Below, one piece after another: positions 14,858 to 39,095 of a DNA stretch of 64,000 bases (positions are counted from its first letter, which is position 1; each line of letters begins with the position of its first letter). The position numbers and the translations under genes are program-made. Source of the stretch: Armatimonadota bacterium (GTDB lineage Bacteria; Armatimonadota; Zipacnadia; Zipacnadales; UBA5352); contig JBMNNW010000012.1 in NCBI GenBank assembly GCA_050942735.1, forward strand, positions 1,053 to 65,052, read 5' to 3'. The notes under the pieces are model-generated. The model searched no databases. It was not told where the DNA came from and worked only from the letters and a program-made list of their open reading frames with translations.

Positions 14858-14865
14858 CCGACGCG

Positions 14866-15211: not shown

Positions 15212-16402
15212 CTACGCTTCGAGCATCAGGTCGCCGGGGCGGAGAGTGTTGCCGTGGGCCATCAGCAGGCCGCGCTGGATGGCGTTGTCGAGCTGGCGGA
15301 GGTTGCCCGGCCAGCTCTGCCGCCGCAGCAGCTCCACCGCCTCCGGGGAGATCGCATCGGGACCGCGCGCGTGGCGGCGGAGGTGCTTGCGCAGGAAGAA
15401 GCGCGCGAACGGCTCGATGTCCTCCGGGCGCTCGCGCAACGGCGGGAGGCTCAGCGGCATGACCGCCAGCCGGTAGTAAAGGTCCTCCCGGAAGCGCCCC
15501 TCCTCCACCGCGCGACGAAGGTCCTGGTTGGTCGCGCAGATCAGCCGCACGTCCACCTCGATCGGCTTCGTCCCACCCAGTCGCGTGAATGTCAGGTCCT
15601 GGGCGAACCGCAGCAGCTTCACCTGATTGTCCATGCTCATCTCGCCGATCTCATCAAGGAAGATCGTCCCCCCGTCGGCGACCTCGCAGAGCCCCTTCTT
15701 CGCCTGCGTGGCCGAGGTGAACGCGCCCTTCTCGTGACCGAAGAGCTCGCTCGTGAGGAGTTGCTCGGGCAGGGAGCCGCAGTTGATCGGGACGAACGTC
15801 CTCTCCGCCCGATCGCCCATGAGATGGATTGCGCGGGCGAGGAAGTCCTTGCCGGTGCCGGTCTCTCCCTCGATGAGCACCGGGGTGGGTGTGCCGGCCA
15901 CGCGCGCGGCGGCGGCGTAAGCCCGTCTCACCCGTGAGCTTCGACTCATCACGTGCTCGAAGCCGTGGCGCTCGCGAAGAACCTGCCAGAGGTACCCCGC
16001 CTCATCGCCCGGCGCGGTGTCTCCGCCGGTGCCCAGCACCTCTGAGGCACGGGACAGCAGCTCCTCGCGGGCGAAGGGCTTCTGAAGGTAGTGCGCTGCG
16101 CGCAGCCCGAGCGCCTCGACGGCCGTCTCGAAGCTCGGGTGCGCGGTGATGATGATCGCGGGCGCGTTGACGCCCTTCGCCCGGAGGTGGCCGAGCAGTT
16201 CGACGCCGTCGGCGTCCGGGAGCATGCGATCGAGGATCAGCAGATCGGGCGGGCGGTCTCCGATGGCCTCCGCCAGCGCTGAGGCGCCATCCGCAGCGGT
16301 GCGCAGCTCGCAGTCAAGTTCGCCGAGGGTTCGGCCGACGGTCGCGAGCATCTCCGGGTCGTCGTCAACGATGAGCACGGTGGGCCTGTCGGCCTCTGAC
16401 AC
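15212..16402 (-). CDS. sigma54-dependent response regulator (receiver + AAA+), lacking the C-terminal HTH
   Basis: Receiver LIVDDD, DRMLP, KPF; Walker A GETGTGK; GAFTSA loop; Walker B IFLDEI; REDLYYRL; WPGNLRQL; the protein ends shortly after sensor II. Confidence 0.93.
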   Translation of the reverse strand: MSEADRPTVLIVDDDPEMLATVGRTLGELDCELRTAADGASALAEAIGDRPPDLLILDRMLPDADGVELLGHLRAKGVNAPAIIITAHPSFETAVEALGLRAAHYLQKPFAREELLSRASEVLGTGGDTAPGDEAGYLWQVLRERHGFEHVMSRSSRVRRAYAAAARVAGTPTPVLIEGETGTGKDFLARAIHLMGDRAERTFVPINCGSLPEQLLTSELFGHEKGAFTSATQAKKGLCEVADGGTIFLDEIGEMSMDNQVKLLRFAQDLTFTRLGGTKPIEVDVRLICATNQDLRRAVEEGRFREDLYYRLAVMPLSLPPLRERPEDIEPFARFFLRKHLRRHARGPDAISPEAVELLRRQSWPGNLRQLDNAIQRGLLMAHGNTLRPGDLMLEA

Positions 16403-16436
16403 GATGATGGCGTCCCTTCGGTGCGGCGGGGTGAGT

Positions 16437-17216
16437 TCAGGAGTTCAGACGCGTGTTGAGCGCGGCGCGCAGCCGCGCGATCGCCTGGGTGTGAATCTGA
16501 CAGATGCGCGATTCGGTCACGTCGAGCACCAGGCCGATCTCACGCATCGTCAACTCCTCGTGGTAGTAAAGGCTGATGACCATCCGCTCGCGCTCTGACA
16601 GTTCGCCGATGCACTCGACGAGGAGGCGGCGCATCTCGGCGCGGTCGGCGACCGCGTGCGGGAGCCACTCGGGGCGTTCGGCGTCAATGCTCGCGTTGGT
16701 GGGGGCATGCGCATCGCCCGAGGACTCCGAGAGGCTCTCGAGAGAGACAAGCGCGGCCGTGGAGGCGTCGCGCAGCAGCTTGCGGTACTCGGCGGCCGTG
16801 AGGCCCAGCCGCTCGATGATCTCCGCCTCATCGGGCTGGCGGCCAAGCTGCTGACGTAGTTCGGCGACGGCCGCCTCAAGCTCGCGGTAGCGCCCGCGCA
16901 GGCCGCGCGGCGCCGGGTCCATCCTGCGCAACTCATCGAGGATCGCCCCGCGCATGAGCGTACATGCGTAGGTGCGGAAGCTCGCGCCGCGCCCCGGATC
17001 GTAGCGATCGACGGCCCTGATCAGCCCGATCATGCCCGCGCTGACAAGATCCTCGCGGTCAACCTGCGCGGGCAGACCTGAGGCGACGCGGTCCACCTCG
17101 TAACGCACGAGGTCAACGTTCTCGGTGATCAGGTGCTCGCGTTCAACCGGCGACAATCCGGCGCTCTCAGCGGTCTGAAACACGGGTGAACCCCCTGATC
17201 GGGTGATGCGACTCAT
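16437..17216 (-). CDS. fliA: RNA polymerase sigma28 factor FliA/WhiG
   Basis: DLVSAGMIGLIRAVDRYD, FRTYA, RGAILDELR, region 4 LSERERMVISLYYHEELTMREIGLVLDVTESRICQIH. Confidence 0.93.
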   Translation of the reverse strand: MSRITRSGGSPVFQTAESAGLSPVEREHLITENVDLVRYEVDRVASGLPAQVDREDLVSAGMIGLIRAVDRYDPGRGASFRTYACTLMRGAILDELRRMDPAPRGLRGRYRELEAAVAELRQQLGRQPDEAEIIERLGLTAAEYRKLLRDASTAALVSLESLSESSGDAHAPTNASIDAERPEWLPHAVADRAEMRRLLVECIGELSERERMVISLYYHEELTMREIGLVLDVTESRICQIHTQAIARLRAALNTRLNS

Positions 17217-17394
17217 GATCGACGAGGTGGATGCAGATGGGCCTGCCTCGCGCCGGCGACGAGGACCTCGTTGAGGGCATCTTGAGTGAAATGTCACGAG
17301 AACTCCGCAAGTTCATTCCTCGTAAGATGATCCCGCACCTCCAACTCGTGCCGGTTCTTCGTGAGATAAATGCGTGCGCCGGGGCGTCTTCGCA

Positions 17395-18480
17395 TCAGAT
17401 CCCCCCGGATGCTCGCGCTCGCTCGCGGCGGCTTCGGCGTCGCCGGTAGACGGCGGCGAAGATCTCAGCCACCACGGCGTAGAGCTTCTCCGGCACCGCA
17501 CCGCCGAGTTCGCAGGAGCGGAAGAGGCTGCGCGCGACCGGCGGGTTCTCGATGACCTCGATGCCGTGCATGCGGCCGAGGCGGATGATCTCCCGCGCGA
17601 CGGCACGCTGTCCCTTCGCGACGACCTTCGGCGCGGTCATGCTCACCGGATCGTATCTCAGCGCGACGGCGAAGTGCGTCGGGTTGGTCACGACCACGTC
17701 GGCCCGCGCCATCTCCGGGGAGATGCCCTGGGCCTGCATCGAGCGGCGAAGCTCTCTGCGCTTTGCGCGGATCTGCGGGTCGCCGTCGCTCTCCCTGAGG
17801 TCGCGTTTGAGTTCATGGCGGGTCATGCGAAGCTGCTTCTCATGGTCGTACCACTCGAAGGCGTAGTCGGCCGCGCCGATCACCAGCAGCAGCCCCATCG
17901 ACTTGACGAGCATCTCCGCGGCGATCGCGCCCATCGCCGCCATCATCGGCCGAAGCTGCATGTCGGCCATCAGCAGTATCTGCTCGGTGTGAGCGCGCAA
18001 CACGAGCGCGGCGACCAGCCCGACCGCGCAGACCTTCAGGATGCTCTTGAGCGTCGCGACGGCCCCCCGTGCGCTGAAGAGGCGCTTGAAGCCGTTGACC
18101 GGATTGAGCCGCGACCAGTCGGGCTTGATCGCCGAGGGGGCGATGAGGCCGCCGGTCTGCGCGGAGGCGGCGACGACCGTCCCGACGATCACGGCGAGCA
18201 TGATCGGCCCGAGCAGCATCGCCATCATCGGCAGCAGACTCGCCCACGCGGCCATCACACCGTCCGCGTCGATCTCACGCGTCCCCGCGATCCGCAGCCA
18301 GTGCTCGGTGAGGTCCTGCAGACGCCGCAGCATCCCCGTGCCTCCGAAGCGCCACGCGAGGTAGATCGCGAGCAACCCGAAGGCGCGGGTCAGGTCAACG
18401 CTGGTCGCGACCCGGCCCTTCTCCCGCGCCTGACGGCGCTTGCGCGGCGTTGGTTGCTCCGTGCGTTCCTCGGTCGCCAT
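17395..18480 (-). CDS. flhB: Flagellar export protein FlhB
   Basis: ERTEQPTPRKRRQAREKG, LNPVNGFKRLFS, autocleavage NPTH. Confidence 0.97.
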   Translation of the reverse strand: MATEERTEQPTPRKRRQAREKGRVATSVDLTRAFGLLAIYLAWRFGGTGMLRRLQDLTEHWLRIAGTREIDADGVMAAWASLLPMMAMLLGPIMLAVIVGTVVAASAQTGGLIAPSAIKPDWSRLNPVNGFKRLFSARGAVATLKSILKVCAVGLVAALVLRAHTEQILLMADMQLRPMMAAMGAIAAEMLVKSMGLLLVIGAADYAFEWYDHEKQLRMTRHELKRDLRESDGDPQIRAKRRELRRSMQAQGISPEMARADVVVTNPTHFAVALRYDPVSMTAPKVVAKGQRAVAREIIRLGRMHGIEVIENPPVARSLFRSCELGGAVPEKLYAVVAEIFAAVYRRRRSRRERARASGGI

Positions 18481-18502
18481 CGGCAGCCTCTCTCTCCGGC
18501 AC

Positions 18503-19285
18503 TCACCCTGCGAAGGCCCGCAGCACCGCGTCCATGTACGTCGCCATCACCCGCGTGATCTGCCCGATGTTGTGCAGCAACATCGGCATGCCCACCGCCG
18601 CGATCGCGAAGGCGAGTGCGATCTTCGCCGGGATGCCGACAAGGAAGACGTTGATCTGCGGCACCGCCCGCGCGACCAGCCCCAGCGCGAGGTCCGCCAG
18701 CAAGAGCGCGACCATCACCGGGCCGGCGACCCTCAGCCCGAGCACGAGCAGACTCGTGCCGAGGTTCGAGACCAGCGCCGCGAGGTCGGCGCCGAGCGTG
18801 ATGCCGCCGACGGGCACGATCGCGAAGCTGTCCGCCACGCCGCGCAGAAGCCAGTGGTGGCCGTCGAGCGTGACGAAGAAGATCAGCGCGAGCATGTAGT
18901 ACCCGGTGCTGAGGATCCCCGAGTGCGCGCCGCTGACCGGGTCGAAGAGCTGCCCCGCGCGCAGGCCGATCTGCAGATCGAGCATCTCGCCGCCGAAGCG
19001 CAGTGCCTCCAGCACCGCCGAGACCACGAAGCCCAGCGCGATCCCGAACCCCAGCTCCGCCGCGCACACGGCGACGTACACGATCGGCTGATCGGTCTGA
19101 GGGGCCGAGCTAGTCGCCACCGGCGCGATCACCACCGCGAGCGCGAGCGCGAGGGCGACGCGCACCGGGACCGGGGCCTGCTGGTAGCTCAGTCCGGGCG
19201 CGACCGCCGCCAGCCCCACGACTCGGAGTCCGGCCGGCAGAAGGTCCGCCGCCTGCTCGATCAGCAGCACGAACACTTCGATCAT
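18503..19285 (-). CDS. fliR: Flagellar export protein FliR
   Basis: Multi-TM protein; LDGHHWLL, VARAVPQINVFLVGIPAK. Confidence 0.93.
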   Translation of the reverse strand: MIEVFVLLIEQAADLLPAGLRVVGLAAVAPGLSYQQAPVPVRVALALALAVVIAPVATSSAPQTDQPIVYVAVCAAELGFGIALGFVVSAVLEALRFGGEMLDLQIGLRAGQLFDPVSGAHSGILSTGYYMLALIFFVTLDGHHWLLRGVADSFAIVPVGGITLGADLAALVSNLGTSLLVLGLRVAGPVMVALLLADLALGLVARAVPQINVFLVGIPAKIALAFAIAAVGMPMLLHNIGQITRVMATYMDAVLRAFAG

Positions 19286-21344
19286 GCGGGCACCTCCACC
19301 GTCTCCGGCTCCAGCGCGATGGCCCCGCGCGCCCGCAAAGTCAACTCGGGCACGATCTCGGCGTGGGAGAGCACGGTCACGTCGGGGAAGCTGCGGCGGA
19401 CCAGTGCGCGCAGGTGCCGGCGGATCGGCGGCGAGGTAAGGATGACCGGGGCACTCCCCCGAGCCCCCAGCTCCTCCGCCGCCGACTGCACCGAGCGCAG
19501 CATGGCGTGGAGCGCCGCCGGGTCGAGCAGGCAGCTCTGCCCCTGAGGAGTCTCGACGATCGATTCTGCGACCAGCGCCTCAAGTTCGGGGTCGAGCACG
19601 TACGCGGCGAGCGTTTCTCCGTCGCGAAGCTGCTCACAGATAGTGCGGGCGAGGGCCGCGCGCACGTACTCCGCCGCCGCCATCAGATCGCCCGAGGCCC
19701 GCAGGCCGTCCGCGAGGGCCTCGACGATCGTGGACATATCCGCGATCGGCACGCCCTCATCCAGCAGCGCCTGCAGCACCTGATGGAGCTGGCCGACCGA
19801 CGCCATCTCCGGGATCAGCTCGTTGACCGCCGCCGGGTTTGTCTGCCGCAGCTCATCGAGCATCACCTGCACGTCCTGGCGGCTGACCAGCTCGGGTGCG
19901 TGCGCCTTTATCAGCTCGCTCAGGTGCGTCGCCAGCACGACCTCCGGCTCGACGACGGTGTATCCCCGCGCCTCCGCGAGCGTCCGCTGCTCGGCATCGA
20001 TCCACCACGCCGGCAGCCCGAATGCGGGCTCGATGATGCTGGTGCCCGGGAGTTCGTCGAGGCCCTCCCGGGTGGCGATCGCCATCATCCGCGACGGCTG
20101 CAGGCCACCCTCGGCGATGCGCGCTCCGCGCAGCCGCACCACGTAGGCGTTAGGGCGCAAAGTCATGTCGTCCTGGATGCGCACCGGCGGGACCAGCAAC
20201 CCCATCTCCGATGCGATCTGCGCGCGGATCGCCCCGATCCGCTGCAGCAGCGAGCCGCGGCGGCTTTCATCGACCAGCTCGATCAACCCGAATCCGATCT
20301 GCACCGCGAGTCTGTCCGGCGCCGAGACGGCGGCCGTCCGATCATCCGGCGGTGTGTCCTCGGCGGCCTCCCTCGCGGCCTCATCCTCGTGACCACCGGC
20401 CCGGCGGACGAGCCACGCGAGGACTCCCGCGGTGGTGCCGACCGCGAGGAAGCTCAGCGTGGGCAGGCCCGGCACCATCGCGAAGACCACCAGCATGATC
20501 CCGACGATTCCGACTGCCCGCGGCTGGGCGAGCACCTGCGTGATCACGTCGGTGCCGAGGTCGTGCTCGGAGGCCGAACGCGTGACGGCGAGGCCGGTCG
20601 CGGTGGAGATCAGCAGCGCCGGGATCTGACTGACGAGGCCATCGCCGACCGTGAGCAGCGCGTAACGCTGGAGCGCCTCTCTCGGCTCAAGCGACAGCCG
20701 CGTCATGCCGATGATGAGGCCGGCGATGATGTTGATGACAACGATGATGATCGCGGCGATGGCGTCGCCGCGCACGAACTTGGTGGCGCCGTCCATCGCG
20801 CCGAAGAAGTCTGCCTCGCGTTCGATGGTGCGGCGGCGCTCGCGGGCCTCGTCCTCGGTGACCAACCCCGCCGAGAGGTCCGCATCGATCGCCATCTGCT
20901 TGCCGGGCATCTCGTCGAGGGTGAAGCGCGCCGCCACCTCCGCCACGCGCTGCGAGCCGCTGGTGATGACCACGAACTGAATGATCACGAGGATGAGGAA
21001 GAGGATGAGCCCGACCACAGGTCGCCGCCGACGACGAAGTTGCCGAAGGCCTCGATGACCTTCCCGGCGTGGGCGTTGAGGAGGATCAGACGCGTCGAGG
21101 AGATATTCAGCGCGAGGCGGAAGAGCGTCGCCACCAGCAGCACCGACGGGAAGACCGCGAACTCCAGCGGCTCCCGCACGTACATCGCCACCAGCAGGAT
21201 GCACAATGCGACGCCGAAGTTGACCGTCAGCAGCAGGTCAAGCACCGCGTCGGGCAGCGGAATCAGCATCATCGCCACGAGGCCGATGATCCCGACCGCG
21301 ATCATCGCGTCGGTCTGCCGCAGCGCACGCCCGAGGATCGACAC
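19282..21344 (-). pseudogene. flhA: FlhA with a single-base frameshift near 21018-21019
   Basis: N-terminal frame reads ...VIEAFGNFVVGGDL then continues out of frame; conserved VVGLILFLILVIIQFVVIT...RFTLDEMPGKQM is in the next frame; adding one G (CTG GTG) restores FlhA. Confidence 0.88.
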
Positions 21345-21346
21345 GA

Positions 21347-22054
21347 TCAGCCACCCGCCCCCGCGCGTAGTCTCCCCGCGATCCGCGCCCGGATGCTCGC
21401 GGCCGCACGACCGTAGAACTCCTGCGCTCGCCCGGGCGTGATCTGCAGCAGTGCGGCGATCTCCGGGAAGCTCAGCCCGTCCTCGAAGTACAGCGTCAGG
21501 AGCCGCCGCTGATCCTCCGGCAGCGCCGAGACGGCCCCCACCAGCGCGCCGCCGCCTCCCTCGTGCGGCCGACCGGGCAGCAGCAACTCGGGACTGACGC
21601 CGAAGACCAGCCCGGCCTCGGCGAAGCGCTCGGCAAGCCGCCCCTCGTCGAGGCCGAGGGCGCGCGCGACCTCGCGATCCTCGCTCACGTCCGGGCAGCA
21701 TTCCGACAGCGCCGAGCACAGCGGCGCGATGCGGCACGGCCACGCCGCCTCGAACCACGAGCTTGACAGCGCCCACGCGCGCATGCCGCCAACCACCCGG
21801 CCCATCACATCGCTCTCAGGCGTCAGCTCTCCGGTGCGGCCGTCAGCAAGCTCCAGCACGGTCACGAGGCCCTGGCTCATCAGCAGACCCTCGTCGAGCC
21901 ACGGTGAGATGCGCGCGCCCAGCCGCCCCATCGCAACCCGCACAAGCGCCGTCAGCGGGCGGAGGGCCTCGCAGTCACGGGTGACGATGAGCGGCTCTCC
22001 GCCACCCTCGCCGGAACTTCGCTCGCCTCGCCTCTGAGTTGTGCCTCGTGCCAT
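21347..22054 (-). CDS. Degenerate FliA-like sigma factor paralog
   Basis: Region-4 HTH LPEDQRRLLTLYFEDGLSFPEIAALLQIT; N-terminal part collinear with FliA region 2 but missing its conserved motifs. Confidence 0.65.
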   Translation of the reverse strand: MARGTTQRRGERSSGEGGGEPLIVTRDCEALRPLTALVRVAMGRLGARISPWLDEGLLMSQGLVTVLELADGRTGELTPESDVMGRVVGGMRAWALSSSWFEAAWPCRIAPLCSALSECCPDVSEDREVARALGLDEGRLAERFAEAGLVFGVSPELLLPGRPHEGGGGALVGAVSALPEDQRRLLTLYFEDGLSFPEIAALLQITPGRAQEFYGRAAASIRARIAGRLRAGAGG

Positions 22055-22092
22055 CTCGACTCTCCCACCCGGTCCGCTCAGATGCCCGCCCG

Positions 22093-22362
22093 TCATTGCA
22101 CGTAGCGCGGGATGTTCGTCAGAAGCTCGGTCGTGAACCCGGCCAGCGAGCGAAGCATCCACGAACCGCAGGCCAGCACCGTCAGGCCGATCGCCACGAT
22201 CTTCGGGACGAATGTGAGCGTCATCTCCTGCACCTGCGTCACCGCCTGCACAATCCCCACCAACACGCCGATCAGCAGGGCAACGCCCAGCACCGGCCCG
22301 CCGAGCTTGAGCGTCGCGATGAACATGTCCCGCGCGAGGTTCACGTAGATGTCCGTCGGCAC
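22093..22362 (-). CDS. fliQ: Flagellar export protein FliQ
   Basis: GILVGIVQAVTQVQEMTLTFVPK-type motif (GVLVGIVQAVTQVQEMTLTFVPK). Confidence 0.95.
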   Translation of the reverse strand: MPTDIYVNLARDMFIATLKLGGPVLGVALLIGVLVGIVQAVTQVQEMTLTFVPKIVAIGLTVLACGSWMLRSLAGFTTELLTNIPRYVQ

Positions 22363-22384
22363 GATCGCATCGCCTCCTCCGCGC

Positions 22385-23143
22385 TCAGCCGAAGCTGAGC
22401 ACCACCGACTGCGTGAGCAGATACCACCCGTCCACCATCACGAAGAGCAGGATCTTGACCGGCAGTGAGATCATCACCGGTGGGACCATCAGCATCCCCA
22501 TCGACATCAGCGCGCTCGCCACCACCAGGTCGATCACGAGGAAGGGCACGAAGAGCACGAAGCCGATCTGAAAGGCGGACTTGAGTTCACTTATGACGAA
22601 GCCGGGCATCAGGATGTGAAAGGGAACATCCTCGGGCCTCGCCGGACGCGCATGGTCGGAGATCTCGTAGAACAACGCGAGGTCCTTCTCCCGCGTCTGC
22701 GCGAGCATGAAGCTCCGCAGCGGAAGCGCCGCGCGATCGAGCGCACTCTCGTAGCCGATCTCCCCCTCCAGATAGGGGCGGACACCCTCCTCGTTGATCG
22801 CATCGAAGACCGGATGCATGACGAAGAGTGTCAGGAAGAGCGCGAGGCCGACCAGCACGGTGTTCGGCGGCGTCTGCTGCGTCCCCAGCGCCGTGCGCAG
22901 GAAGCTCAGCACGATCACGATCCGCGTGAACGACGTCAGCGTCATCAGCAGCGCCGGTGCCAGCGACAGGACTGTGAGGCCAAGCAGGATCCGCAGCGTC
23001 AGGACGATCTGCTCGGGCTGGTCGCTCGTCCACGCCTCCGGCAGCGCGGGCATCGCCGGCCCCTGCGCCGACGCCTCTCCGGCGAGCAGCAGCGTCACCG
23101 CCACCGCGCCCGCGACGGGCCAGCGACGTGCCCTCTCGCGCAT
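22385..23143 (-). CDS. fliP: Flagellar export protein FliP
   Basis: MTLTSFTRIVIVLSFLRTALGTQQTPPN, PGFVISELKSAFQIG. Confidence 0.97.
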   Translation of the reverse strand: MRERARRWPVAGAVAVTLLLAGEASAQGPAMPALPEAWTSDQPEQIVLTLRILLGLTVLSLAPALLMTLTSFTRIVIVLSFLRTALGTQQTPPNTVLVGLALFLTLFVMHPVFDAINEEGVRPYLEGEIGYESALDRAALPLRSFMLAQTREKDLALFYEISDHARPARPEDVPFHILMPGFVISELKSAFQIGFVLFVPFLVIDLVVASALMSMGMLMVPPVMISLPVKILLFVMVDGWYLLTQSVVLSFG

Positions 23144-23146
23144 CGT

Positions 23147-26471: not shown

Positions 26472-26514
26472 GCTGCTCCTTTGATGCCCGTCAGTGCGTC
26501 GCGGTCGTCAGGAT

Positions 26515-26748: not shown

Positions 26749-26762
26749 CGCGTCCTCCTCTC

Positions 26763-26778
26763 TGCAAGGCCCGTGCCG
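26763..26778 (-). promoter_or_regulatory. sigma54 promoter motif upstream of flbD-motAB
   Basis: CGGCACGGGCCTTGCA on the minus strand (GG-N10-GC), 8 nt after the flgE stop; predicted TSS falls only about 4 nt before the flbD ATG. Confidence 0.7.
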
Positions 26779-26785
26779 CCGGGCC

Positions 26786-29277: not shown

Positions 29278-29290
29278 GATCCCGACCTCC

Positions 29291-29677: not shown

Positions 29678-29692
29678 CTGCGTCTCCTCCTG

Positions 29693-31474: not shown

Positions 31475-32019
31475 CGCGCGGCCGTCCTTTCCTGCAGGTA
31501 GCGCTCCACCCGGCGGACGTAGGCTTGCGTCTCAGCGTAAGGCGGCACCCCGTCGTAACGTCTGACGGCTCCCGGCCCGGCGTTGTATGCAGCGAGCGCC
31601 AGGGTCCGATCACCGAAGCGCTCAAGCTGCGCGCGGAGATAGCGCGCACCGCCGTGCACGTTCTGCGCCGGATCCCAGGGGTCCGTCACTCCAAGAGCGC
31701 GCGCGGTGCCGGGCATCAGTTGCATCAGCCCCATCGCACCCGCCGAGGACCGGCAGCGGGGATCGTAGCCCGACTCCGCGCGGACGACCGCGTGGATCAG
31801 GTCCTCGCTCAGGTCATTCACCCGAGCCGCCTCCTCGATGATCGCGTCGAAGCCCGCCCCGTCATCTGTCCTGATCCCCGTGGCCTGACCGGCCACCGCG
31901 CGGTTGAGCGCGGTGGCGAACTCCACCGGTCGCGCGGTGCCCGTCCCCGCGGTGAGGCCTCCGAGGCGGGCCTCGATCGTTGAGATCCGCTGCATGATCG
32001 TCGGCAGTCTGCTCAGCAC
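31471..32019 (-). CDS. Soluble lytic transglycosylase (SLT family)
   Basis: AVVRAESGY, SAGAMGLMQLMP, ALAAYNAG, PPYAETQAYV; GGAGG RBS plus GTG at 32019. Confidence 0.92.
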   Translation of the reverse strand: MLSRLPTIMQRISTIEARLGGLTAGTGTARPVEFATALNRAVAGQATGIRTDDGAGFDAIIEEAARVNDLSEDLIHAVVRAESGYDPRCRSSAGAMGLMQLMPGTARALGVTDPWDPAQNVHGGARYLRAQLERFGDRTLALAAYNAGPGAVRRYDGVPPYAETQAYVRRVERYLQERTAAR

Positions 32020-32041
32020 TGATGTCCTCCGCGGCTTCTCA

Positions 32042-32539
32042 TCAGACGCTGTCAGGGTCGGCGGCCGGTGAGCCGACGAGCGCCGCGTGACGGTCGGCGC
32101 GGTGTCGGCTGATGGCGGCCTCGTTGAGGTCGCGTTGCTCGCGGAGCATCTCCTCGCGTGCGTGCTCGGCCTCGCGTCGCTCTGAGAGTCGCTCCAGTGT
32201 CCGGCGTGCCCGCGATGCCTCCACCAGCTCAGTCCGCCGGGTCTCGGCCTGGCGCTCGGCCTCGTCGAGGCGCTGCTGCTGATTCGTGAGCCTGCGGCGG
32301 AGGTCGGCGAGCACGCACGCGGTGTGCTCGACCTCACCCAGCGCCACGCTCGCGCCGCCTCCAGTGCCCGGGCCCCGAAGACCCGCGATGATCGCGTCAT
32401 GCCGCAGGCGCATCTGCTCGAGGTCGGCGCGTCGGCCGCGAACAACGCTCTGCGCGGTCGCGAGTCGGCGCCGGGCCTGCTCCTCCTCGCGGCATCGCAG
32501 CTCAAGGGCTGTCTGCAGTGGGAAGTGATACTTGCGCAC
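32042..32539 (-). CDS. fliJ: Flagellar export chaperone FliJ
   Basis: MRKYHFPLQTALELR start, coiled coil; directly after fliI. Confidence 0.85.
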   Translation of the reverse strand: MRKYHFPLQTALELRCREEEQARRRLATAQSVVRGRRADLEQMRLRHDAIIAGLRGPGTGGGASVALGEVEHTACVLADLRRRLTNQQQRLDEAERQAETRRTELVEASRARRTLERLSERREAEHAREEMLREQRDLNEAAISRHRADRHAALVGSPAADPDSV

Positions 32540-32610
32540 GCGGCCTCACCGTGCTCTGCGGCGTCATTGCTGCTCGGGTCGCTTAACCTTCGCCGCAAGC
32601 GCTCGTTTCT

Positions 32611-34074
32611 TTAGCCGTGCGTGAGGTTCTTGTCAGAGGAAGTTACCTTCTCGCGCTCTCCACCGACGCTGGCCGCCGCTTCGAAGCTCGCGAGGGCATG
32701 GGGGATGTTCGGGCGTCGATGCGCCGGCTCGGCCTGAAGCTCAGCAGGCGTGGGTGTTCGTTGCGGCGGGGGCTGCAGCGCCTCGGCGAGCCCGCTGCGC
32801 GTGTCTTCGAAGCTCTCGCAGTCGCCGGCATCCTGCCGGAGAAACTGCAGGATCTGCGGCCGCAGTGCGATGGCTCGATCGACCTGCGGGTTGCTGCCCT
32901 GCTCGTACGCTCCAAGGTTAATCAGGTCCTCGTGCTCCTGCCAGGTCGCGAGCGCCTCCTGCATCTTCCGCGCGTTGCGCAGGTGCTGCTCGCCCGCGAG
33001 CCCGTCCATCAGTCGGCTGACGCTCTCGAGGACGTCGATCGCGGGGTAGTGCCCCTGGTGCGCGAGACTCCGGGAGAGGACGATGTGCCCATCGAGAATG
33101 CTGCGCGCGGCGTCGGCGACCGGCTCGGTCATGTCATCCCCGTCCACCAGCACCGTGTAGAGCGCCGTGATGCTCCCGCGCGCCCCCATCCCCGAGCGCT
33201 CCAGCAGCCTCGGCAGCTCGGCGAAGACCGAGGGCGTGTACCCGTTGCGCGTCGGCGGCTCGCCCACGGCCAGCCCGACCTCGCGCTGCGCCCACGCAAC
33301 CCGCGTGATCGAGTCCATCATCAGCAGCACGTCGAGGCCCCGGTCGCGGAAGAACTCCGCGATCGTCGTCGCCACCTGTGCGCCTCTCATTCTCACAAGC
33401 GGCGGCTGATCGCTGGTCGCCGCCACCACCACCGAGCGGGCAAGGCCCTCCTCACCGAGCGTCTCCTCGACGAACTCACGCACCTCCCGCCCGCGCTCGC
33501 CGACCAGCCCGATCACGTTCACGTCGGCCGCGGCGTTGCGCGCGATCATCCCCAGCAGCGTGCTCTTGCCCACGCCCGAGCCGGCGAAGATCCCGATCCT
33601 CTGCCCCCGACCGCAGGTCAGGAGGCCGTCGATCGCCCGCACCCCCAGCGGCAGCGGCTCAATGATGCGCATCCGCTCCATCGCCGGCGGCGGGGGCGCC
33701 TCCGCGGGCAGGAACGCGTCGGGCGGCGGTGCGGGACGGCCGTCGAGCGGCTCGCACAGTCCGCCGAAGACGCGCCCGAGCATCGCCTCCCCGACCGGGA
33801 CCATCATCGGGCGTCCGCACCCGACCACCGGACTGCCCGCCGAGATCCGCCGGGTATCACCCAGCGGCATCATCAGAAGACGCTCATCGCGGAATCCAAC
33901 CACCTCCGCGCGGATCGCCCCGGCGCCGGTCGCGATCTCACACAGGTCGCCGATCCGCGCGGGCGGGCCATCGGACTCAATGATTATGCCCACCGACCTC
34001 GTGACCCGACCGGAGCGTCGCACCGTGTCAACCTCGCCGATCCGCGCGGCCAGTGCCCGCAGGCGCTCGGTCAT
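32611..34074 (-). CDS. fliI: Flagellar export ATPase FliI
   Basis: GIFAGSGVGKSTLL, GERGREVREF, DSITR, SILDGHIVL; C-terminal extension. Confidence 0.97.
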   Translation of the reverse strand: MTERLRALAARIGEVDTVRRSGRVTRSVGIIIESDGPPARIGDLCEIATGAGAIRAEVVGFRDERLLMMPLGDTRRISAGSPVVGCGRPMMVPVGEAMLGRVFGGLCEPLDGRPAPPPDAFLPAEAPPPPAMERMRIIEPLPLGVRAIDGLLTCGRGQRIGIFAGSGVGKSTLLGMIARNAAADVNVIGLVGERGREVREFVEETLGEEGLARSVVVAATSDQPPLVRMRGAQVATTIAEFFRDRGLDVLLMMDSITRVAWAQREVGLAVGEPPTRNGYTPSVFAELPRLLERSGMGARGSITALYTVLVDGDDMTEPVADAARSILDGHIVLSRSLAHQGHYPAIDVLESVSRLMDGLAGEQHLRNARKMQEALATWQEHEDLINLGAYEQGSNPQVDRAIALRPQILQFLRQDAGDCESFEDTRSGLAEALQPPPQRTPTPAELQAEPAHRRPNIPHALASFEAAASVGGEREKVTSSDKNLTHG

Positions 34075-34781
34075 CCGCCTTCACCCTCGCCCAGCGCCGC
34101 GCTGATCTCATCGCCGAGCAGTTCAACCTGCGTTTCAATCCGCGCGTCGAAGCGGCCGCGCTCCGTCTCGACGATGCACCCGCCCGGTCCGATCGCTTCG
34201 TCGGCCACGATCTCAAGCTGCTCGGCACCATCGGTGGCCGCCAGCAACTCCGCCGTCGCGGCGCGCACCAGCGGCTCATCGGGGGCCGGCACGCGCACCG
34301 TCAGGCGCTTCGCCCCGGCCGTCTGCTCGATCGTCGAGCGAACCACGTCGAGCACCACGCCGTCCTCGGCTTCCACCTTCCGGCGGATGACATTCCCCGC
34401 CATCGTGGCGACCAGCCGGAGGAGTTCGCGCTCGCTCTCCTCGAAGCGAGCCTCGGCGGCGGCGCTGATCTGCTGCAGCAGCGAGGCCCGCGCGCTCTCG
34501 AAGGCTGCCGCCTGCTCCGCCACGCACTCGCGCAACGCCGCGTCGAGCTGGCCGCGCGCCTCGCTCAGCGCCTTCGCCCACGCCTCCTCGCGAGTGTTCT
34601 CCCGGATACGCTCGGCGTCCTCACGCGCCTGCGCGACGAGCCGCTCCGACTCCCGCCTGCCCTCGCGCAGCACTCGTTGCGCGCGCTCGGAAGCCTGCGC
34701 GTTGCCACGACCGCACCGGGTCGCGGGCTCATCCCCGTCGAAGCTCGGCCAGCGCCAGGGTCGCGGATCCGCGTGTGCCAT
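34071..34781 (-). CDS. fliH: Flagellar assembly protein FliH
   Basis: Helical AxxxA repeats, C-terminal IGPGGCIVETERGRFDARIETQ. Confidence 0.9.
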   Translation of the reverse strand: MAHADPRPWRWPSFDGDEPATRCGRGNAQASERAQRVLREGRRESERLVAQAREDAERIRENTREEAWAKALSEARGQLDAALRECVAEQAAAFESARASLLQQISAAAEARFEESERELLRLVATMAGNVIRRKVEAEDGVVLDVVRSTIEQTAGAKRLTVRVPAPDEPLVRAATAELLAATDGAEQLEIVADEAIGPGGCIVETERGRFDARIETQVELLGDEISAALGEGEGG

Positions 34782-36436
34782 CAGCCCTGCTCATCTCCCG
34801 CGTCCCCGTCCCCCTCGGCCATCTGATGCAGCCATCCGCTCAGGTGCCGGGCGAAGTCCTCCGGCGAGCGGTTGCCCAGCTCGGAGAGCCGCTCGGCCGG
34901 CCCTGCCTGCGGCTCCGGCGCCTGCGGTTGGCCCGCCGCGTACGACGGCTCGTCGCCTTCGGTGCTCGCCTCCAGCTCTGCGAAGCTCACCGGCCCGAAC
35001 TCCACGCTCTCCTCGTCATCGGACGCGTCGGCGTCGGAGACTGTCTCCCCCGACGGCTCCTCGCGTCTCCCATCCCCGGTGTCCGGCTCCTCCTGCGGTC
35101 CGAGCCTGCGCGACACCATCAGCATCGCTCCCGCGATCATCGCCAGCATCACAATCACGCTGGCGTAACGCAACGCGCGGCTCATCGACTGCGCGCGGGC
35201 CCGCTCCGCCGCCGCCGACTCCGCCAGCTCAGCCTCCTTCTGAGCGATCTTCACCGCCTCGATCGCCATCGTCTCGACGGTCACCACGTCCCCGCGCTCG
35301 GGCTCTATCCCCGCGGCCGCCTCCACGAGCTGCCGCACCTGCCTTCCGGTCCCCGCTCCGAGGCTCTCATCCACCACCACCGCCACCGCCAGCCGCTGCA
35401 GCGCGCCCGGCGGGCTGGAGACCTGCTCCTGCAGCCGCGCGTAGTCGTACTCGCGGCTCTCATGACGGTGCTGGTAGCTCCCCCCGCCGCCCCGACCCGC
35501 CTCCGGCCTGCCGTCGAGCCCCGCCGGGCCGCCCACTTCGCGGCCGGCGTCCCCCTCATACTGCTCCTCGGTCAACTCCTCCCGGCGCACCACCCCGAGA
35601 CCCTCAGGAGGATCGAAGCTCTCACGCGTGATCTGCTGGCTCTGAAAGTCCAGCGTGGCCTGCACGCGCACCACCGAGCGGTTCGCCCCCAGCACCGAGT
35701 CGAGCATCGTCTGCAGGTGCCCGCGCACGCGCTCCTCCCACGCCCTCGTCGCCTCAAGCTGCGCCATCGTCTGCATCCCGCCGCCCCCGTCGATCCCACC
35801 GGTCAGCACCCGGCCGACCGTGTCCACCACCGTCACCGCGTCCGCCTCCAGCCCCGGCACCGCGCTTGAGACAAGCTGCGTGATTGCCGCCACCTGGCCC
35901 GCCCCAAGCTTCGCTCCCGCCAGGCCCACCACCACCGACGCGCTGGGAGGCTCCTGCTGCTCGCGGAACAAACGCTCTTCCGGAAGCGCGACATGCACCC
36001 GCGCGGACTTGATCTCCTCCAGCGTGCAGATGCTCCGCTCCAGCTCGCCCTGCAGCGCGCGCTGGAGGTTCACGTTGTTCTGCAGGTCGCTCGTGGAGAA
36101 ACTGCTGCGGTCGAAGAGCTCGAAGCCAACGTTCGACCCGCCCGGAAGACCCTCCCCCGCAAGCTCGATTCGCAGTTCGTAGAGTCGCTCGCGAGGAACC
36201 TGCACTGTCGTGCCTCTGTCCGCGAGCTGATGGCGAACGCCCGCTTCGCGCAGCCGCTCCACCACCGTCTGCGCGTCCTGCGGCGACAGCTCGGAGTAAA
36301 GCACCGCCCACGACGGCTGCGCCGCCCACACGCCGACGGCGACCAGCCCGCCAAGCAGTAGCGCCGCCAGCGCGATCAGTGAGATCTGCTGCCGTCGTTC
36401 AAGTGCCTCCCACGTCTCCCTCAGTTGCTCGAGCAT
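34781..36436 (-). CDS. fliF: MS-ring protein FliF
   Basis: VLYSELSPQDA, GFELFD, RALQGELERSI, ARVHVALP, two TM segments. Confidence 0.96.
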   Translation of the reverse strand: MLEQLRETWEALERRQQISLIALAALLLGGLVAVGVWAAQPSWAVLYSELSPQDAQTVVERLREAGVRHQLADRGTTVQVPRERLYELRIELAGEGLPGGSNVGFELFDRSSFSTSDLQNNVNLQRALQGELERSICTLEEIKSARVHVALPEERLFREQQEPPSASVVVGLAGAKLGAGQVAAITQLVSSAVPGLEADAVTVVDTVGRVLTGGIDGGGGMQTMAQLEATRAWEERVRGHLQTMLDSVLGANRSVVRVQATLDFQSQQITRESFDPPEGLGVVRREELTEEQYEGDAGREVGGPAGLDGRPEAGRGGGGSYQHRHESREYDYARLQEQVSSPPGALQRLAVAVVVDESLGAGTGRQVRQLVEAAAGIEPERGDVVTVETMAIEAVKIAQKEAELAESAAAERARAQSMSRALRYASVIVMLAMIAGAMLMVSRRLGPQEEPDTGDGRREEPSGETVSDADASDDEESVEFGPVSFAELEASTEGDEPSYAAGQPQAPEPQAGPAERLSELGNRSPEDFARHLSGWLHQMAEGDGDAGDEQG

Positions 36437-36499
36437 GACCCTCTGCCCCGGCTCCCTGCCGTCCGATGGTCCTCAGATAACCCACCTGTGCGCCGCGCC

Positions 36500-36808
36500 T
36501 CAGAGCTGCATCCGCGAGATCTCTTTGTACGCCTCCACCGCGCGCTGGGTCATCTGCGCGGTCAGGCGCAGCGTCAGATCGGCCTTCTCAAGCGCGATGA
36601 TCGCGGTGTGCAGGTCATCGGCGTCACCGGTCGCGACCCGCCGGACCGCCGAGTCCGCCGCCTGCTGCGTCTCGTTCACCCGGGCGAGCGCCTCCCGCAA
36701 CACCTCCGCGAAGCCGCCCCCGCCGCCGCCGACTCTCACACCATCCGCCGCCGGCGCCGTCTCCGGCCGCTGGACCGGAAGCGGGATGAAGCTGCTGTCA
36801 ACTCGCAT
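36500..36808 (-). CDS. fliE: Hook-basal body protein FliE
   Basis: DLHTAIIALEKADLTL...VEAYKEISRMQL. Confidence 0.93.
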   Translation of the reverse strand: MRVDSSFIPLPVQRPETAPAADGVRVGGGGGGFAEVLREALARVNETQQAADSAVRRVATGDADDLHTAIIALEKADLTLRLTAQMTQRAVEAYKEISRMQL

Positions 36809-36824
36809 CGAGTAACGACCTCCC

Positions 36825-37241
36825 TTACGCCAGGATGCTCAGCGCCGTCTGCATCATCTCCCGGCCGGAGCGCAGCGCCGCCGCGTTGGCCTCGTACGCT
36901 CTCGCCGCCAGCACCATGTCCGCCATCTCCGTCGGCAGGTCAACGTTGGGCATCTCCACGTAGCCCTCCACATTCGCATCGGGGTGCGCCGGGTTGTGTA
37001 TCCGCCGCAGCGGTGCGTCATCCGGCCGCACCTCCGCGACGCGCACGCCGCTGCACCGCACACCTCCCGGCCCCGAGCCGACCTGCTCGGCCCGCAGCAC
37101 CACTTGCCGTCGACGCCATGGGCCGCCCTCGACCGTGCGCGTGGTCTCCACGTTCGCGATGTTCTCGGCGATCACGTCCATCCGCGTCCGGCCCGCGCTC
37201 AGCGCCGAGCCACTGACCCGCAGCGCGTCAAACACTCCCAT
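36825..37241 (-). CDS. flgC: Basal-body rod protein FlgC
   Basis: MDVIAENIANVETT, HPDANVEGYVEMPNVD, RAYEAN. Confidence 0.96.
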   Translation of the reverse strand: MGVFDALRVSGSALSAGRTRMDVIAENIANVETTRTVEGGPWRRRQVVLRAEQVGSGPGGVRCSGVRVAEVRPDDAPLRRIHNPAHPDANVEGYVEMPNVDLPTEMADMVLAARAYEANAAALRSGREMMQTALSILA

Positions 37242-37244
37242 CGC

Positions 37245-37628
37245 CTACCCGCTCCTCCCGTCGCCGATCACCGTGCCGATCATCTGCAGCCTGCGATCGA
37301 TCAACCGCGTCAGTGCCTGGTAGCGCACCGATGCCTCGCCCAGCGCGAGCATCTCCTCCTCGATACTCACGTTGTTGCCGTCAGGCCCCGCCGGGGCGGC
37401 GGTCGGCGTCAGCGACGGCCTCACGCGACTGATCGCCCCAGTCTCCCGGCCGCTCTGCTCCGCCCTGACCGCCGCCCGCAGCGCGCCCTCAAAGCTCACC
37501 CGCCGCGCGGTGTAGCCGGGCGTCTCGATGTTCGCGAGGTTGTTCGCCGCTACCCGGTGTCCTGCGGCGGCGCCGTCCAGCGCCTTCTCCAGCGCCCGCG
37601 TCGTCAGGTCCGCCACGCCGTCGGTCAC
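37245..37628 (-). CDS. flgB: Basal-body rod protein FlgB
   Basis: VAANNLANIETPGY, DGNNVSIEEEM; GTG 37628 after GGAGG preferred (ATG 37643 is the alternative). Confidence 0.94.
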   Translation of the reverse strand: MTDGVADLTTRALEKALDGAAAGHRVAANNLANIETPGYTARRVSFEGALRAAVRAEQSGRETGAISRVRPSLTPTAAPAGPDGNNVSIEEEMLALGEASVRYQALTRLIDRRLQMIGTVIGDGRSG

Positions 37629-37652
37629 GAGCCTCGCCTCCATCGCTCTCGT

Positions 37653-37668
37653 GGCAATGTCCGTGCCG
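37653..37668 (-). promoter_or_regulatory. sigma54 promoter of the flgB operon
   Basis: CGGCACGGACATTGCC on the minus strand (GG-N10-GC), 7 nt after the rpoN stop. Confidence 0.8.
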
Positions 37669-37674
37669 ATCCGC

Positions 37675-39021
37675 CTACGCCGCCCGGTAGATCCGCCGCC
37701 GCTCCGTCGAAGACGGGATCCCCAGCGCACGGCGGTACTTGTTCACCGTCCGCCGCGCCAGCGCGAACCCCCGCGCGTCCATCTCCGACTGCAGCTCCTC
37801 ATCGGTCAGCGGTGCGCTCGCCGGCTCACCCGCGAGAACCTCCCGCAGCACGGTCTTCGCCGGGAGTGCGTCATCGAAGAACACGCCGAAAGGCACGCTT
37901 TCGCCCGAGGGCATCTGCACCAGCTTGCCCATCGTCGCCCGCGACACCGTCGACTCGTGCAGCCCCGTCAGCTCGGAGATGCGCTTGTGCGTCAGCGGCC
38001 GGTGCGCAAGCGGCCCGTCGAGGATGTACCCGCGCTGCTGGCCGGCGATCGCGCGGCTGATGCGGTAGAGACTCCGCTCGCGCTGCTGCAGCGACCAGAT
38101 GAGCTGCCGCGCCGAGCGCACCTGCGCGCGAGCCCGCGTCGTCGCCTCATCCTCCGCGCGGCTCTGCCTGCGGCGCATCCGCTCATCCAGCCGCCGGTAC
38201 GCCTCCGCAACGCGCACCGTCAGCGCCCGCGAGGTCAGCAGCGCCACCTCGATCTCATCACCGTGCGCGCTGAGGATCACGTCCGGGCGCCTCGCCTCCG
38301 CGTTGCCGGGCAGCAGATGCTGCCACCTCACCCGGAACTGCTCTCCGGGGTAGGGCGTAAGCCGCGAGCGGATCGCCCGTAGCGCCTCCCGCGACTGCTC
38401 CCGCGTTAGACCCAGCGCCGAGCACAGCGCCGGCCAGCCTCCCCGCTCAAGCGCCCGATCACATTGCTCCACCACACGTCGCACGTACTCCGGCACGTCC
38501 GGCAGTTCGTCGAGCTGCAGCAGCAGGCACTCGCGCAGATTCCGCGCGCCCACCCCCGGTGGCGCCACCGCCTGCACTGATCGCAGGGCCGCCTCGACCT
38601 CAGGCAGATCAGCCTCAAGCTCCAGCGCCGCCTCCAGCGTGGAGATCGTGAGATAGCCGCGTTCGTCGATGCACTCGATCAACCACGCCGCGATCTCACG
38701 CATCCGCCCCGCCGTCGTGGGCCCGACGCGCCGGTGCAGCTCATCACGCAGGTTGTGCCGCGATGGCGCACGCGTGGTCGAGTCGCCGGACACCTCGCTC
38801 CACCCGCGCCGCGCCTGCTGCTCCGGCGCGACCGTCGGGATCTCCTCGCAGTCGAACTCGCACTCGACCTCCAGCGCGGGATTCTCCGCGGCCTCCTCGC
38901 GCATCCGCGCCATCAGCGCCAGGCACGGCAGCTCGAGCAGTTCGCTTCGCACGATGAGTTGGAAGTTCACGACGGGGACCTGCTGCGCGCCCACGATCAG
39001 ATCATTGCGTAGCTCCAACAC
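37675..39021 (-). CDS. rpoN: RNA polymerase sigma54 factor
   Basis: Region I (QQ...LELP.LAL...EEAAENPALE), GVGARNLRECLLLQL, HTH LHESTVSRA, RpoN box ARRTVNKYR; start estimated at GTG 39021. Confidence 0.93.
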   Translation of the reverse strand: MLELRNDLIVGAQQVPVVNFQLIVRSELLELPCLALMARMREEAAENPALEVECEFDCEEIPTVAPEQQARRGWSEVSGDSTTRAPSRHNLRDELHRRVGPTTAGRMREIAAWLIECIDERGYLTISTLEAALELEADLPEVEAALRSVQAVAPPGVGARNLRECLLLQLDELPDVPEYVRRVVEQCDRALERGGWPALCSALGLTREQSREALRAIRSRLTPYPGEQFRVRWQHLLPGNAEARRPDVILSAHGDEIEVALLTSRALTVRVAEAYRRLDERMRRRQSRAEDEATTRARAQVRSARQLIWSLQQRERSLYRISRAIAGQQRGYILDGPLAHRPLTHKRISELTGLHESTVSRATMGKLVQMPSGESVPFGVFFDDALPAKTVLREVLAGEPASAPLTDEELQSEMDARGFALARRTVNKYRRALGIPSSTERRRIYRAA

Positions 39022-39068
39022 CTCGGGGGACTTCCTTTCGCGCCGCCTCGAATCTCTTCGTCGGAGGT

Positions 39069-39095
39069 ACTTCGGCGCCGCAGGCGGCAACTTGA
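39069..39095 (-). promoter_or_regulatory. Putative sigma28-type promoter upstream of rpoN
   Basis: Minus strand TCAA-N15-GCCGAAGT; exact sigma28 spacing. Confidence 0.45.

Follow-up and report, generated by a model that had tools for sequence, protein, structure and literature searches.

The flagellar and chemotaxis genes in a 64-kb stretch of DNA (the window; about 70% GC) from an Armatimonadota metagenome-assembled genome (MAG) probably form one regulon, in which sigma-54 drives most of the transcription of genes arranged in a Firmicutes-like fla/che order. A single cluster encodes sigma-54 itself (rpoN), a REC-AAA+ activator without a helix-turn-helix (HTH), a histidine kinase without transmembrane segments, sigma-28 (fliA), and a fliA-like paralog (sigX); an earlier note, made from the sequence alone, had listed the same five genes, and all proved to be minus-strand genes at, or close to, the positions that it gave them. 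Experiments on sigma-54 flagellar hierarchies come almost wholly from Proteobacteria and Campylobacterota, and this locus offers a comparative case from a barely studied phylum, with a Firmicutes-type fla/che order under sigma-54 and every regulator inside the cluster. Genes were called using third-position GC and Pfam/NCBIfam scans.

Sigma-54 motifs were counted in the window and in 100 shuffles of it. GGCAC-N5-TTGC occurred five times (0.54 expected) and GGYAC-N5-TTGC six times (0.70 expected), numbers reached by 0 of the 100 shuffles in either case. All six matches (at 152, 14406, 26764, 28094, 37654, and 43261) were co-oriented with a motility gene and lay 15 to 90 nt upstream of its start. 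Only the exact core of the motif is informative: the bare GG-N10-GC pattern tells nothing because the DNA is 70% GC, and looser patterns (TGGCAC-N5-TTGCW with two mismatches, GGCAC-N5-TTGC with one) were not enriched over shuffles. Five sigma-54 motifs had been proposed for positions 15212-39095; the enrichment is real, but only three strong copies fall within that interval. The six sites were as follows.

151-166, plus strand, PcheA (TGGCACGGGAGTTGCC), before the cheA operon
14405-14420, plus strand, PfliS (TGGCACGTGACTTGCA), before fliS and the flgN-like gene
26763-26778, minus strand, PflbD (CGGCACGGGCCTTGCA), in the flgE-flbD gap
28093-28108, minus strand, PflgE (CGGCACCGAAGTTGCG), in the 3' end of the kinase gene, about 87 nt before the flgE ATG
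37653-37668, minus strand, PflgB (CGGCACGGACATTGCC), 7 nt past the rpoN stop
43260-43275, minus strand, PfliG (TGGTACGCCGATTGCA), after a strong terminator hairpin (43308-43334)

Promoter positions were compared with those in relatives whose kinases are 40 to 64% identical (related loci are given below by L numbers). PflgB kept its position in 6/6 lineages, lying in the rpoN-flgB gap of L001, L005, L009, L011, and L013, one of which has an RpoN only 40% identical. PfliS was kept in 3/3 lineages (relatives L006 and L007) and PflgE in 3/4 (relatives L001 and L005; lost in L003). PfliG was whole in three lineages (relatives L009 and L011), and its first seven bases (TGGCACG) stood at the matching position in L010, at the end of the slice read. 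PflgE coincides with the kinase peptide G-T-E-V-A, which the three motif-bearing lineages spell GGC ACN GAA GTT GCN, although GAA accounts for 12% of Glu codons and GTT for 7.5% of Val codons in the window genes; the lineage without PflgE encodes G-T-A-V-T in common codons. The rare codons in three lineages argue that the DNA motif itself, and not the protein only, has been under selection: a sigma-54 promoter written into the kinase coding sequence at the cost of rare codons.

Further features were seen around these sites. A CATGTAC/TATGTAC heptamer lies 5 to 25 nt upstream of the PfliG -24 element, just past the hairpin, and is conserved in all four lineages (window, 43275-43300; L009, 3320-3340; L010, about 3040; L011, 3885-3905). 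In relatives, a strong hairpin separates the rpoN stop from PflgB (L001, 1620-1665; L009, 6840-6870); with only 7 nt between the two in the window, read-through from rpoN to flgB is likelier here. In L013, a sigma-54 motif (CGGCACACCAATTGCA, at 17236) follows flhB and precedes a gene for an 889-amino-acid (aa) protein without a Pfam match, which is followed by cheW.

The second class of promoter is of the sigma-28 type. TMAA-N15-SCCGAW matched only twice in the window, upstream of rpoN and of the flagellin gene.

about 39066-39096, minus strand, sigma-28-type rpoN promoter, CTCAAGTTG-N-GCCGAAGTAC (TCAA-N15-GCCGAAGT), from motif and conservation
10250-10278, plus strand, canonical flagellin sigma-28 promoter, CTAAAG-N-CCCGATAT, from motif

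An alignment of the DNA upstream of rpoN from four lineages contained the invariant block GACTCAAGTT-C---G-G--GCCGAA-TA amid poorly conserved sequence, and two distant loci (L012 and L013; RpoN 35 to 40% identical), where rpoN adjoins flgB or flgM, had a canonical TAAA/TCAA-N15-GCCGATAG upstream of rpoN. The rpoN spacing, TCAA-N15-GCCGA, is that of flagellin promoters in the clade; the L007 flagellin gene, for example, has CTCAAG-N-GCCGATAA. As four lineages keep the motif and two distant ones have it in canonical form, rpoN is by these alignments preceded by a real and old sigma-28-type promoter motif, so that the sigma-28-like site claimed earlier upstream of rpoN is both present and conserved across six lineages. 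A link from sigma-28 to rpoN was not found in the literature searched, and it would be the most novel and most testable feature of the locus. L013 has a sigma-28 promoter before flgF-flgG as well.

Transcription from the promoter at 10250 would give flagellin mRNA a 5' untranslated region of about 215 nt (10279-10498). An antisense sigma-28-like site in flhA (CTCAAG-N16-GCCGATGA; 20687-20715, plus strand) recurs in three lineages (the window; L001, 17815, minus strand; L007, 5748, minus strand) and was set aside as probably a by-product of conserved coding sequence.

The regulatory genes were placed as follows.

37675-39021, minus strand, rpoN (sigma-54), 448 aa, GTG start at 39021
28003-29277, minus strand, GAF-HisKA-HATPase histidine kinase (Pfam)
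21347-22054, minus strand, sigX, degenerate FliA/WhiG-family paralog (region 4 by Pfam; profile-profile alignment)
16437-17216, minus strand, fliA (sigma-28; TIGR02479)
15212-16402, minus strand, REC-AAA+ sigma-54 activator (Pfam)

By its domain matches, RpoN is a divergent sigma-54. Sigma54_CBD (PF04963, 122.5 bits) and Sigma54_DBD (PF04552, 109.7 bits) both scored above cut-off, and the RpoN box was found (ARRTVNKYR). A Leu-rich segment resembling region I is visible but divergent, and it narrowly missed the AID model (PF00309, 22.9; cut-off, 23.8), and the full-length model TIGR02395 gave 263 bits (cut-off, 277.35). The RpoN orthologs form a tight clade (52 to 100% identity), beyond which identity drops to 41%. 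The start previously given, 39090, is an upstream TTG; relatives begin at a GTG equivalent to 39021.

FliA passes the FliA/WhiG model (TIGR02479, 251.7; cut-off, 189.6), with orthologs at 71 to 73% identity. SigX (235 aa), encoded between fliQ and flhA, scored only 28.9 against that model, and Pfam detected region 4 alone; yet a profile-profile alignment with FliA covered its full length (96% probability, E 3.6e-9), and its best Protein Data Bank (PDB) matches were FliA and WhiG-type sigmas, which makes it a degenerate relative rather than a member of the family. The sigX family is tiny, with 13 representatives at E<=1e-30 among 1.84 billion sequences (single-sequence search), and carries an invariant SSW...PCRIAPLC block; the gene is missing from the L001 (UBA5352) cluster. 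It could encode a modulator or a decoy.

The kinase is a 424-aa GAF-HisKA-HATPase_c protein that starts at a GTG (29277), 21 codons downstream of the start given earlier. It is predicted to be cytoplasmic (highest 19-residue Kyte-Doolittle mean, 1.33). Its H194, N310, and G1 and G2 boxes were invariant in 25 orthologs, among which Pfam detected GAF in 14/25, HisKA in 10/25, and HATPase_c in 25/25. An AlphaFold model (predicted local distance difference test [pLDDT] score, 81) showed a GAF/PAS-like domain at residues 18-170 (pLDDT >90), followed by DHp and CA domains, and the nearest solved structure to the core by sequence was ZraS, the partner kinase of a sigma-54 activator. Full-length homologs were found only in Armatimonadota MAGs, with a sharp drop in score and core-only matches beyond, so the family is, as far as these matches reach, confined to the clade. 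The kinase gene has a fixed place between flgD and flgE, and in several lineages its translation is coupled to that of both neighbors; in the window, its Shine-Dalgarno (SD) sequence directly follows the flgD stop, and its stop overlaps the flgE ATG (ATGA).

The activator (396 aa) comprises REC (85 bits), Sigma54_activat (223 bits), and AAA_lid_14, with a Walker A motif (GETGTGK) and a GAFTSA loop in place of GAFTGA, a family-wide variant found in 109/120 relatives. HTH_8 (PF02954) was not found in it: the protein ends 3 residues past the AAA lid, and its stop lies 25 nt from the convergent flgN-like gene, which leaves no room for an HTH. The FlgR model (NF049963) gave 267.7 bits against a cut-off of 750, below NtrC (344.6) and AtoC (337.8), and the PDB matches ranked Aquifex NtrC1 (284) over FleQ (226), FlrC (218), and FleR (160). 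By these scores, NtrC/AtoC and Aquifex NtrC1 are the nearest matches of the activator, which has no specific kinship to FlgR, FlrC, or FleR.

The absence of a DNA-binding domain, which the earlier note took as a mark of the system, does hold for this genome, but the same synteny elsewhere keeps HTH_8. The closest homologs (76 to 84% identity, 385 to 396 aa) also lack HTH_8, the next tier (62 to 74% identity, 452 to 470 aa) retains it, and an identical gene order holds an HTH-bearing activator in L006 and a 71%-identical HTH-less one in L007. In a rough neighbor-joining tree, the HTH-less clade of the window was nested within HTH-bearing orthologs, and further isolated HTH-less leaves appeared elsewhere; the HTH-less state therefore looks derived, through recent and repeated loss of the domain. 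Orthologous activators with and without an HTH, in the same synteny and with the same promoters, constitute a natural experiment on the need for enhancer binding. An HTH-less REC-AAA+ paralog with 51% identity and a GAFTSA loop was seen in a non-flagellar context, next to genes for phosphoenolpyruvate carboxykinase and a glycoside hydrolase (L008, GCA_936417095.1, 10001-11176).

The cluster runs on the minus strand from 39021 down to 15212, against plus-strand chemotaxis, flagellin, fliD, fliS, and flgN-like genes with which it converges. The remaining genes of the locus were as follows.

211-10219, plus strand, cheA-cheW-MCP-cheR-cheD-cheY-cheX-cheB operon (MCP, methyl-accepting chemotaxis protein; cheA, 211-2595; cheB end, 10219; Pfam)
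10499-12015, plus strand, flagellin
12156-14399, plus strand, fliD
14454-14857, plus strand, fliS
14821-15186, plus strand, flgN-like gene
17395-26748, minus strand, flbD-motA-motB-fliL-fliN-fliO-fliP-fliQ-sigX-flhA(frameshifted)-fliR-flhB (Pfam; flbD via relatives)
26786-28006, minus strand, flgE (hook; Pfam; start from sequence)
29291-37628, minus strand, flgB-flgC-fliE-fliF-fliH-fliI-(fliJ)-SLT-fliK-flgD (Pfam)
32042-32539, minus strand, fliJ (from position and size in relatives)
37628, minus strand, flgB start, a GTG with a GGAGG SD sequence (read from the sequence)
39226-41211, plus strand, DUF4838 gene between rpoN and fliM
41254-42207, minus strand, fliM
42222-43202, minus strand, fliG
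43359-45236, SLH/collagen-like repeat protein, 625 aa

The interval 15212-39095, put forward earlier as the system, does contain what looks like a sigma-54/sigma-28 cascade; outside it lie fliG-fliM, fliS-flgN, flagellin, and the che operon, with promoters of the same types. The gene order from rpoN to the activator, together with the converging flgN-fliS-fliD-flagellin genes, was conserved in five independent lineages, and the closest named RpoN loci belonged to a Candidatus Zipacnadia MAG, to Armatimonadetes UBA5352, and to a MAG labelled WS1. The expectation that the regulators would be conserved together with flagellar genes was borne out, gene order and promoter positions both being kept in Armatimonadota relatives; the rpoN-flgB adjacency and the sigma-28 promoter persisted down to 35 to 40% RpoN identity. 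In L009, L010, and L011, SLH-fliG-fliM lies directly upstream of rpoN on a shared strand, so the opposite-strand DUF4838 gene between fliM and rpoN appears to have been inserted in this genome; UBA5352 has a DUF2238 gene at the same spot. fliG is separated from fliF in the window and in relatives alike. The order flhA-fliR-flhB (17395-21345) is unusual. Neither flhF nor flhG was found in the cluster, including between the export genes and fliA, and neither fliW nor csrA was found in the window; in L013, fliW adjoins flgL.

In the circuit that we propose, the cytoplasmic GAF kinase would phosphorylate the REC-AAA+ activator, which, having no HTH, would engage the sigma-54 holoenzyme from solution, as Helicobacter pylori FlgR does, and open all six promoters. 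PflgB would then drive the genes for rod, MS ring, export ATPase, hook-length protein, hook cap, and kinase; PflgE would drive the hook gene; and PflbD would drive flbD-motAB-fliLNOPQ-sigX-flhA-fliR-flhB(-fliA-activator), with fliG-fliM, fliS-flgN, and the cheA operon as further sigma-54 units. FliA, whose gene lies at the far end of the longest unit, would transcribe flagellin and rpoN, and basal transcription would be required for the circuit to start. With the kinase, activator, and fliA expressed from sigma-54 units and rpoN from a sigma-28 promoter, mutual reinforcement among the four regulators would result.

The claim that the kinase, activator, and fliA lie downstream of sigma-54 motifs holds in the operon sense only. 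No such motif was found directly before any of the three, nor in the flhB-fliA gap of the window, L001, L006, or L007. Co-transcription from PflbD through the activator is suggested by the lack of a promoter- or terminator-like site along this unit, by the 34-nt fliA-activator gap, and by a flhB-fliA gap of 38 nt in L006; the scan for sigma-70-like promoter and terminator consensus sequences between PflbD and the activator returned nothing, and such a scan is of little value at 70% GC. The inferred sigma-28-to-rpoN link and the feedback loop that would follow from it are the unusual features of the locus. Whether the two arms (sigma-28 to rpoN; sigma-54 to fliA, activator, and kinase) close into a reciprocal loop that makes motility an all-or-none, self-sustaining module is a tentative proposal, in which we have somewhat less than even trust; such a loop would be ancient in the clade, since the sigma-28 promoter of rpoN is kept to 35 to 40% RpoN identity. 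A checkpoint and a bistable switch are likewise ways in which the layout may be read.

Several points weigh against this circuit. PflbD, which would head the longest unit, was kept in only 2/4 lineages (relative L001) and was not seen in L003 or L005, and its predicted transcription start falls between the flbD SD sequence and the flbD ATG, only some 4 nt short of the latter. PflgE overlaps a conserved G-T-x-V kinase peptide, so that its conservation is partly a coding constraint. The -10 element of the rpoN promoter (GCCGAAGT) has the GCCGA core and the right spacing, but its 3' half diverges from GCCGATAA. The pairing of kinase with activator was inferred from their co-location, and the 178-nt flhB-fliA gap could hold an unrecognized housekeeping promoter, which would make the circuit linear and not closed. 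With MS-ring and export-gate genes behind sigma-54 promoters, the checkpoint logic of Campylobacter is not directly transferable. Finally, flhA has lost one base near 21010-21017 and is thereby split (minus strand; GGC GGC GAC CTG|TGG TCG, the expected reading being CTG GTG GTC). No homopolymer occurs at the site, and an assembly error was rejected, as contigs from two other DNA runs carry the identical sequence; FlhA is intact in all five relatives (670 to 702 aa). The export gate may thus be broken and the flagellum non-functional in this population, in which case the system is perhaps inactive here.

The least certain step of the proposed circuit is the kinase input. Our best guess is a cue in the cytoplasm that depends on assembly of the basal body or hook, favored by analogy with FlgS, FlrB, and FleS and by the place of the kinase gene between the hook-cap and hook genes, with a small-molecule input to the GAF domain nearly as likely. 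GAF domains typically bind small ligands. Here the N-terminal domain was confidently modelled as GAF/PAS-like and the GAF family matched in 14/25 orthologs, so the kinase might instead sense a metabolic or second-messenger signal, with the two-component system serving as an environmental ON switch for motility and no checkpoint. The MS-ring and export genes behind sigma-54 promoters weaken checkpoint logic and favor this alternative, which we consider a serious one, if short of probable. A position between flgD and flgE with translational coupling would be odd for a general environmental sensor, however, and the known cytoplasmic flagellar kinases FlgS, FlrB, and FleS respond to assembly (PMC7064773).

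That the cluster is self-contained, as the earlier note had it, is tentative: the genome may have a second rpoN or further sigma-54 targets. The rpoN of the cluster might also be the only, general-purpose sigma-54 of the organism, merely located beside flgB, with non-flagellar targets and other activators. HTH-less REC-AAA+ paralogs with about 51% identity do occur in non-flagellar contexts (L008), some of them labelled Armatimonadetes (P0197), and we hold such a general role possible but somewhat doubtful. No strong sigma-54 motif was found across the 21-kb L008 locus, the RpoN clade is tight and distinct, and both the rpoN-flgB adjacency and the sigma-28 promoter outlast divergence to 35 to 40% RpoN identity, all of which counts against such a role.

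A linear cascade would need only a housekeeping promoter of its own for fliA and the activator in the flhB-fliA gap; FliA would then stand on top and turn on rpoN and flagellin, after which sigma-54 and the two-component system would drive the structural genes. The gaps of 178 nt (window), 111 nt (L001), and 195 nt (L007) could fit a promoter, the conserved sigma-28 promoter of rpoN suits this order equally, and the L013 sigma-28 promoter before flgF-flgG indicates that sigma-28 is not purely 'late' in the clade. No conserved motif or sigma-70-like site was found in the flhB-fliA gap, though, the 38-nt gap of L006 implies co-transcription with flhB, and flagellin and rpoN under one activator without further control would lose the usual order of assembly; we judge this arrangement rather unlikely. 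That the motifs are fortuitous, with a housekeeping sigma and sigma-28 transcribing the cluster as in Firmicutes while rpoN, kinase, and activator regulate something else, is very improbable: high-GC DNA does yield many loose GG-N10-GC matches, and motifs with one or two mismatches are unenriched, but the exact core is about tenfold enriched, six of six matches are correctly placed and oriented, their positions are conserved across lineages, and PflgE is spelled in rare codons.

The preferred reading, a sigma-54 regulon laid over a Firmicutes-like gene order, was compared with known systems. The Bacillus subtilis fla/che operon runs flgB-flgC-fliE-fliF...fliK-flgD-flgE-flbD...fliPQ...flhB/flhA, with sigD near the 3' end of a very long operon. 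The gene order in the window and the sigma-28 gene near the 3' end match it; B. subtilis, however, uses sigma-A and sigma-D, and its operon contains no sigma-54, kinase, or bacterial enhancer-binding protein (bEBP) gene. In Chlamydia, CtcB-CtcC-sigma-54 combines a soluble kinase with an NtrC-type activator without a DNA-binding domain, likened here by description only, and is non-flagellar.

Among sigma-54 systems, the Campylobacterota FlgS-FlgR-sigma-54/FliA hierarchy is similar to the proposed circuit in pairing a cytoplasmic kinase with an NtrC-type regulator and in placing sigma-54 promoters before rod and hook genes and the major flagellin under sigma-28 (PMC3930126, PMC7064773). FlgR of H. 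pylori has no DNA-binding domain, and the C-terminal domain of Campylobacter jejuni FlgR is dispensable (PMC3930126), a parallel to the apparent HTH loss in Armatimonadota; cytoplasmic flagellum-associated kinases respond to assembly of the flagellar type III secretion system, the MS ring, and the rotor (PMC7064773). The Armatimonadota activator, by contrast, is non-orthologous to FlgR (268 bits against 750 in the FlgR model), a GAF domain serves as the sensor of the kinase, the regulators, rpoN among them, are all encoded in one cluster, and sigma-54 promoters are found before MS-ring, export-gate, C-ring, stator, and che genes as well; a sigma-28-type promoter precedes rpoN, and flhF/flhG are not in the cluster. 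SigX is peculiar to the Armatimonadota cluster among the systems compared.

Rhodobacter (Cereibacter) sphaeroides Fla1 matches the proposed circuit in having a dedicated rpoN2 in its flagellar locus, sigma-54-driven che genes of that locus, a sigma-54-dependent fliA, and a sigma-28-dependent flagellin (PMC7277832). It differs in its activators, FleQ and FleT, which are not a two-component pair, and in phylum and gene order, and PMC7277832 reports no sigma-28 promoter of rpoN2. In Xanthomonas, a second rpoN is co-transcribed with flagellar regulators (fleQ-vemR-rpoN2) and is required for flagellar genes (PMC6637908), but there the master regulator FleQ binds DNA, VemR is a response regulator of one domain, and the hook genes have no kinase gene embedded in them. 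Vibrio (FlrA/FlrBC) and Pseudomonas (FleQ/FleSR) share with the proposed circuit the use of a cytoplasmic kinase (FlrB, FleS) with a sigma-54 regulator (FlrC, FleR) to control rod and hook genes and a sigma-54-dependent fliA (PMC3930126, PMC7064773); they differ in having a separate master bEBP, HTH-bearing activators, rpoN outside the flagellar cluster, and co-occurring FlhF/FlhG, and FlrC and FleR score below Aquifex NtrC1 against the Armatimonadota activator. Co-occurrence with FlhF/FlhG is seen for flagellar two-component systems of Proteobacteria, whereas the Armatimonadota cluster does not include flhF/flhG.

Each piece of the locus has a proteobacterial precedent, and it is best filed as a variant of the two-component/sigma-54/sigma-28 flagellar hierarchies. 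Calling it an undescribed system, as the earlier note did, goes too far, given rpoN within flagellar loci (PMC7277832, PMC6637908) and FlgR without a DNA-binding domain (PMC3930126). Its suggestion of independent assembly fared better: the regulators have no specific FlgR, FlrC, or FleR kin, which fits assembly on a Firmicutes-like fla/che order, and the layout appears to work like the Campylobacterota FlgSR-sigma-54-FliA hierarchy while having seemingly been put together separately. A full-text literature search that combined Armatimonadota, flagella, and sigma-54 found no paper, and the paper describing Zipacnadia mentions flagellar motility in passing only.

The lineage was detected in bioreactor and biogas metagenomes; in a biogas run labelled as RNA-Seq, the organism was present as low-depth, undirected Logan contigs with even coverage. 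Beyond the cluster, the SLH/collagen-repeat gene is directly upstream of fliG in four lineages and has its own sigma-70-like promoter (45312-45284) and terminator. Positions 46603-48377 hold six tRNA genes (3 Ser, 3 Arg) and then a large-type (Firmicutes-like) signal recognition particle (SRP) RNA (48112-48377), just upstream of dnaX-ybaB-recR; the listed start of the dnaX open reading frame overlaps the SRP RNA.

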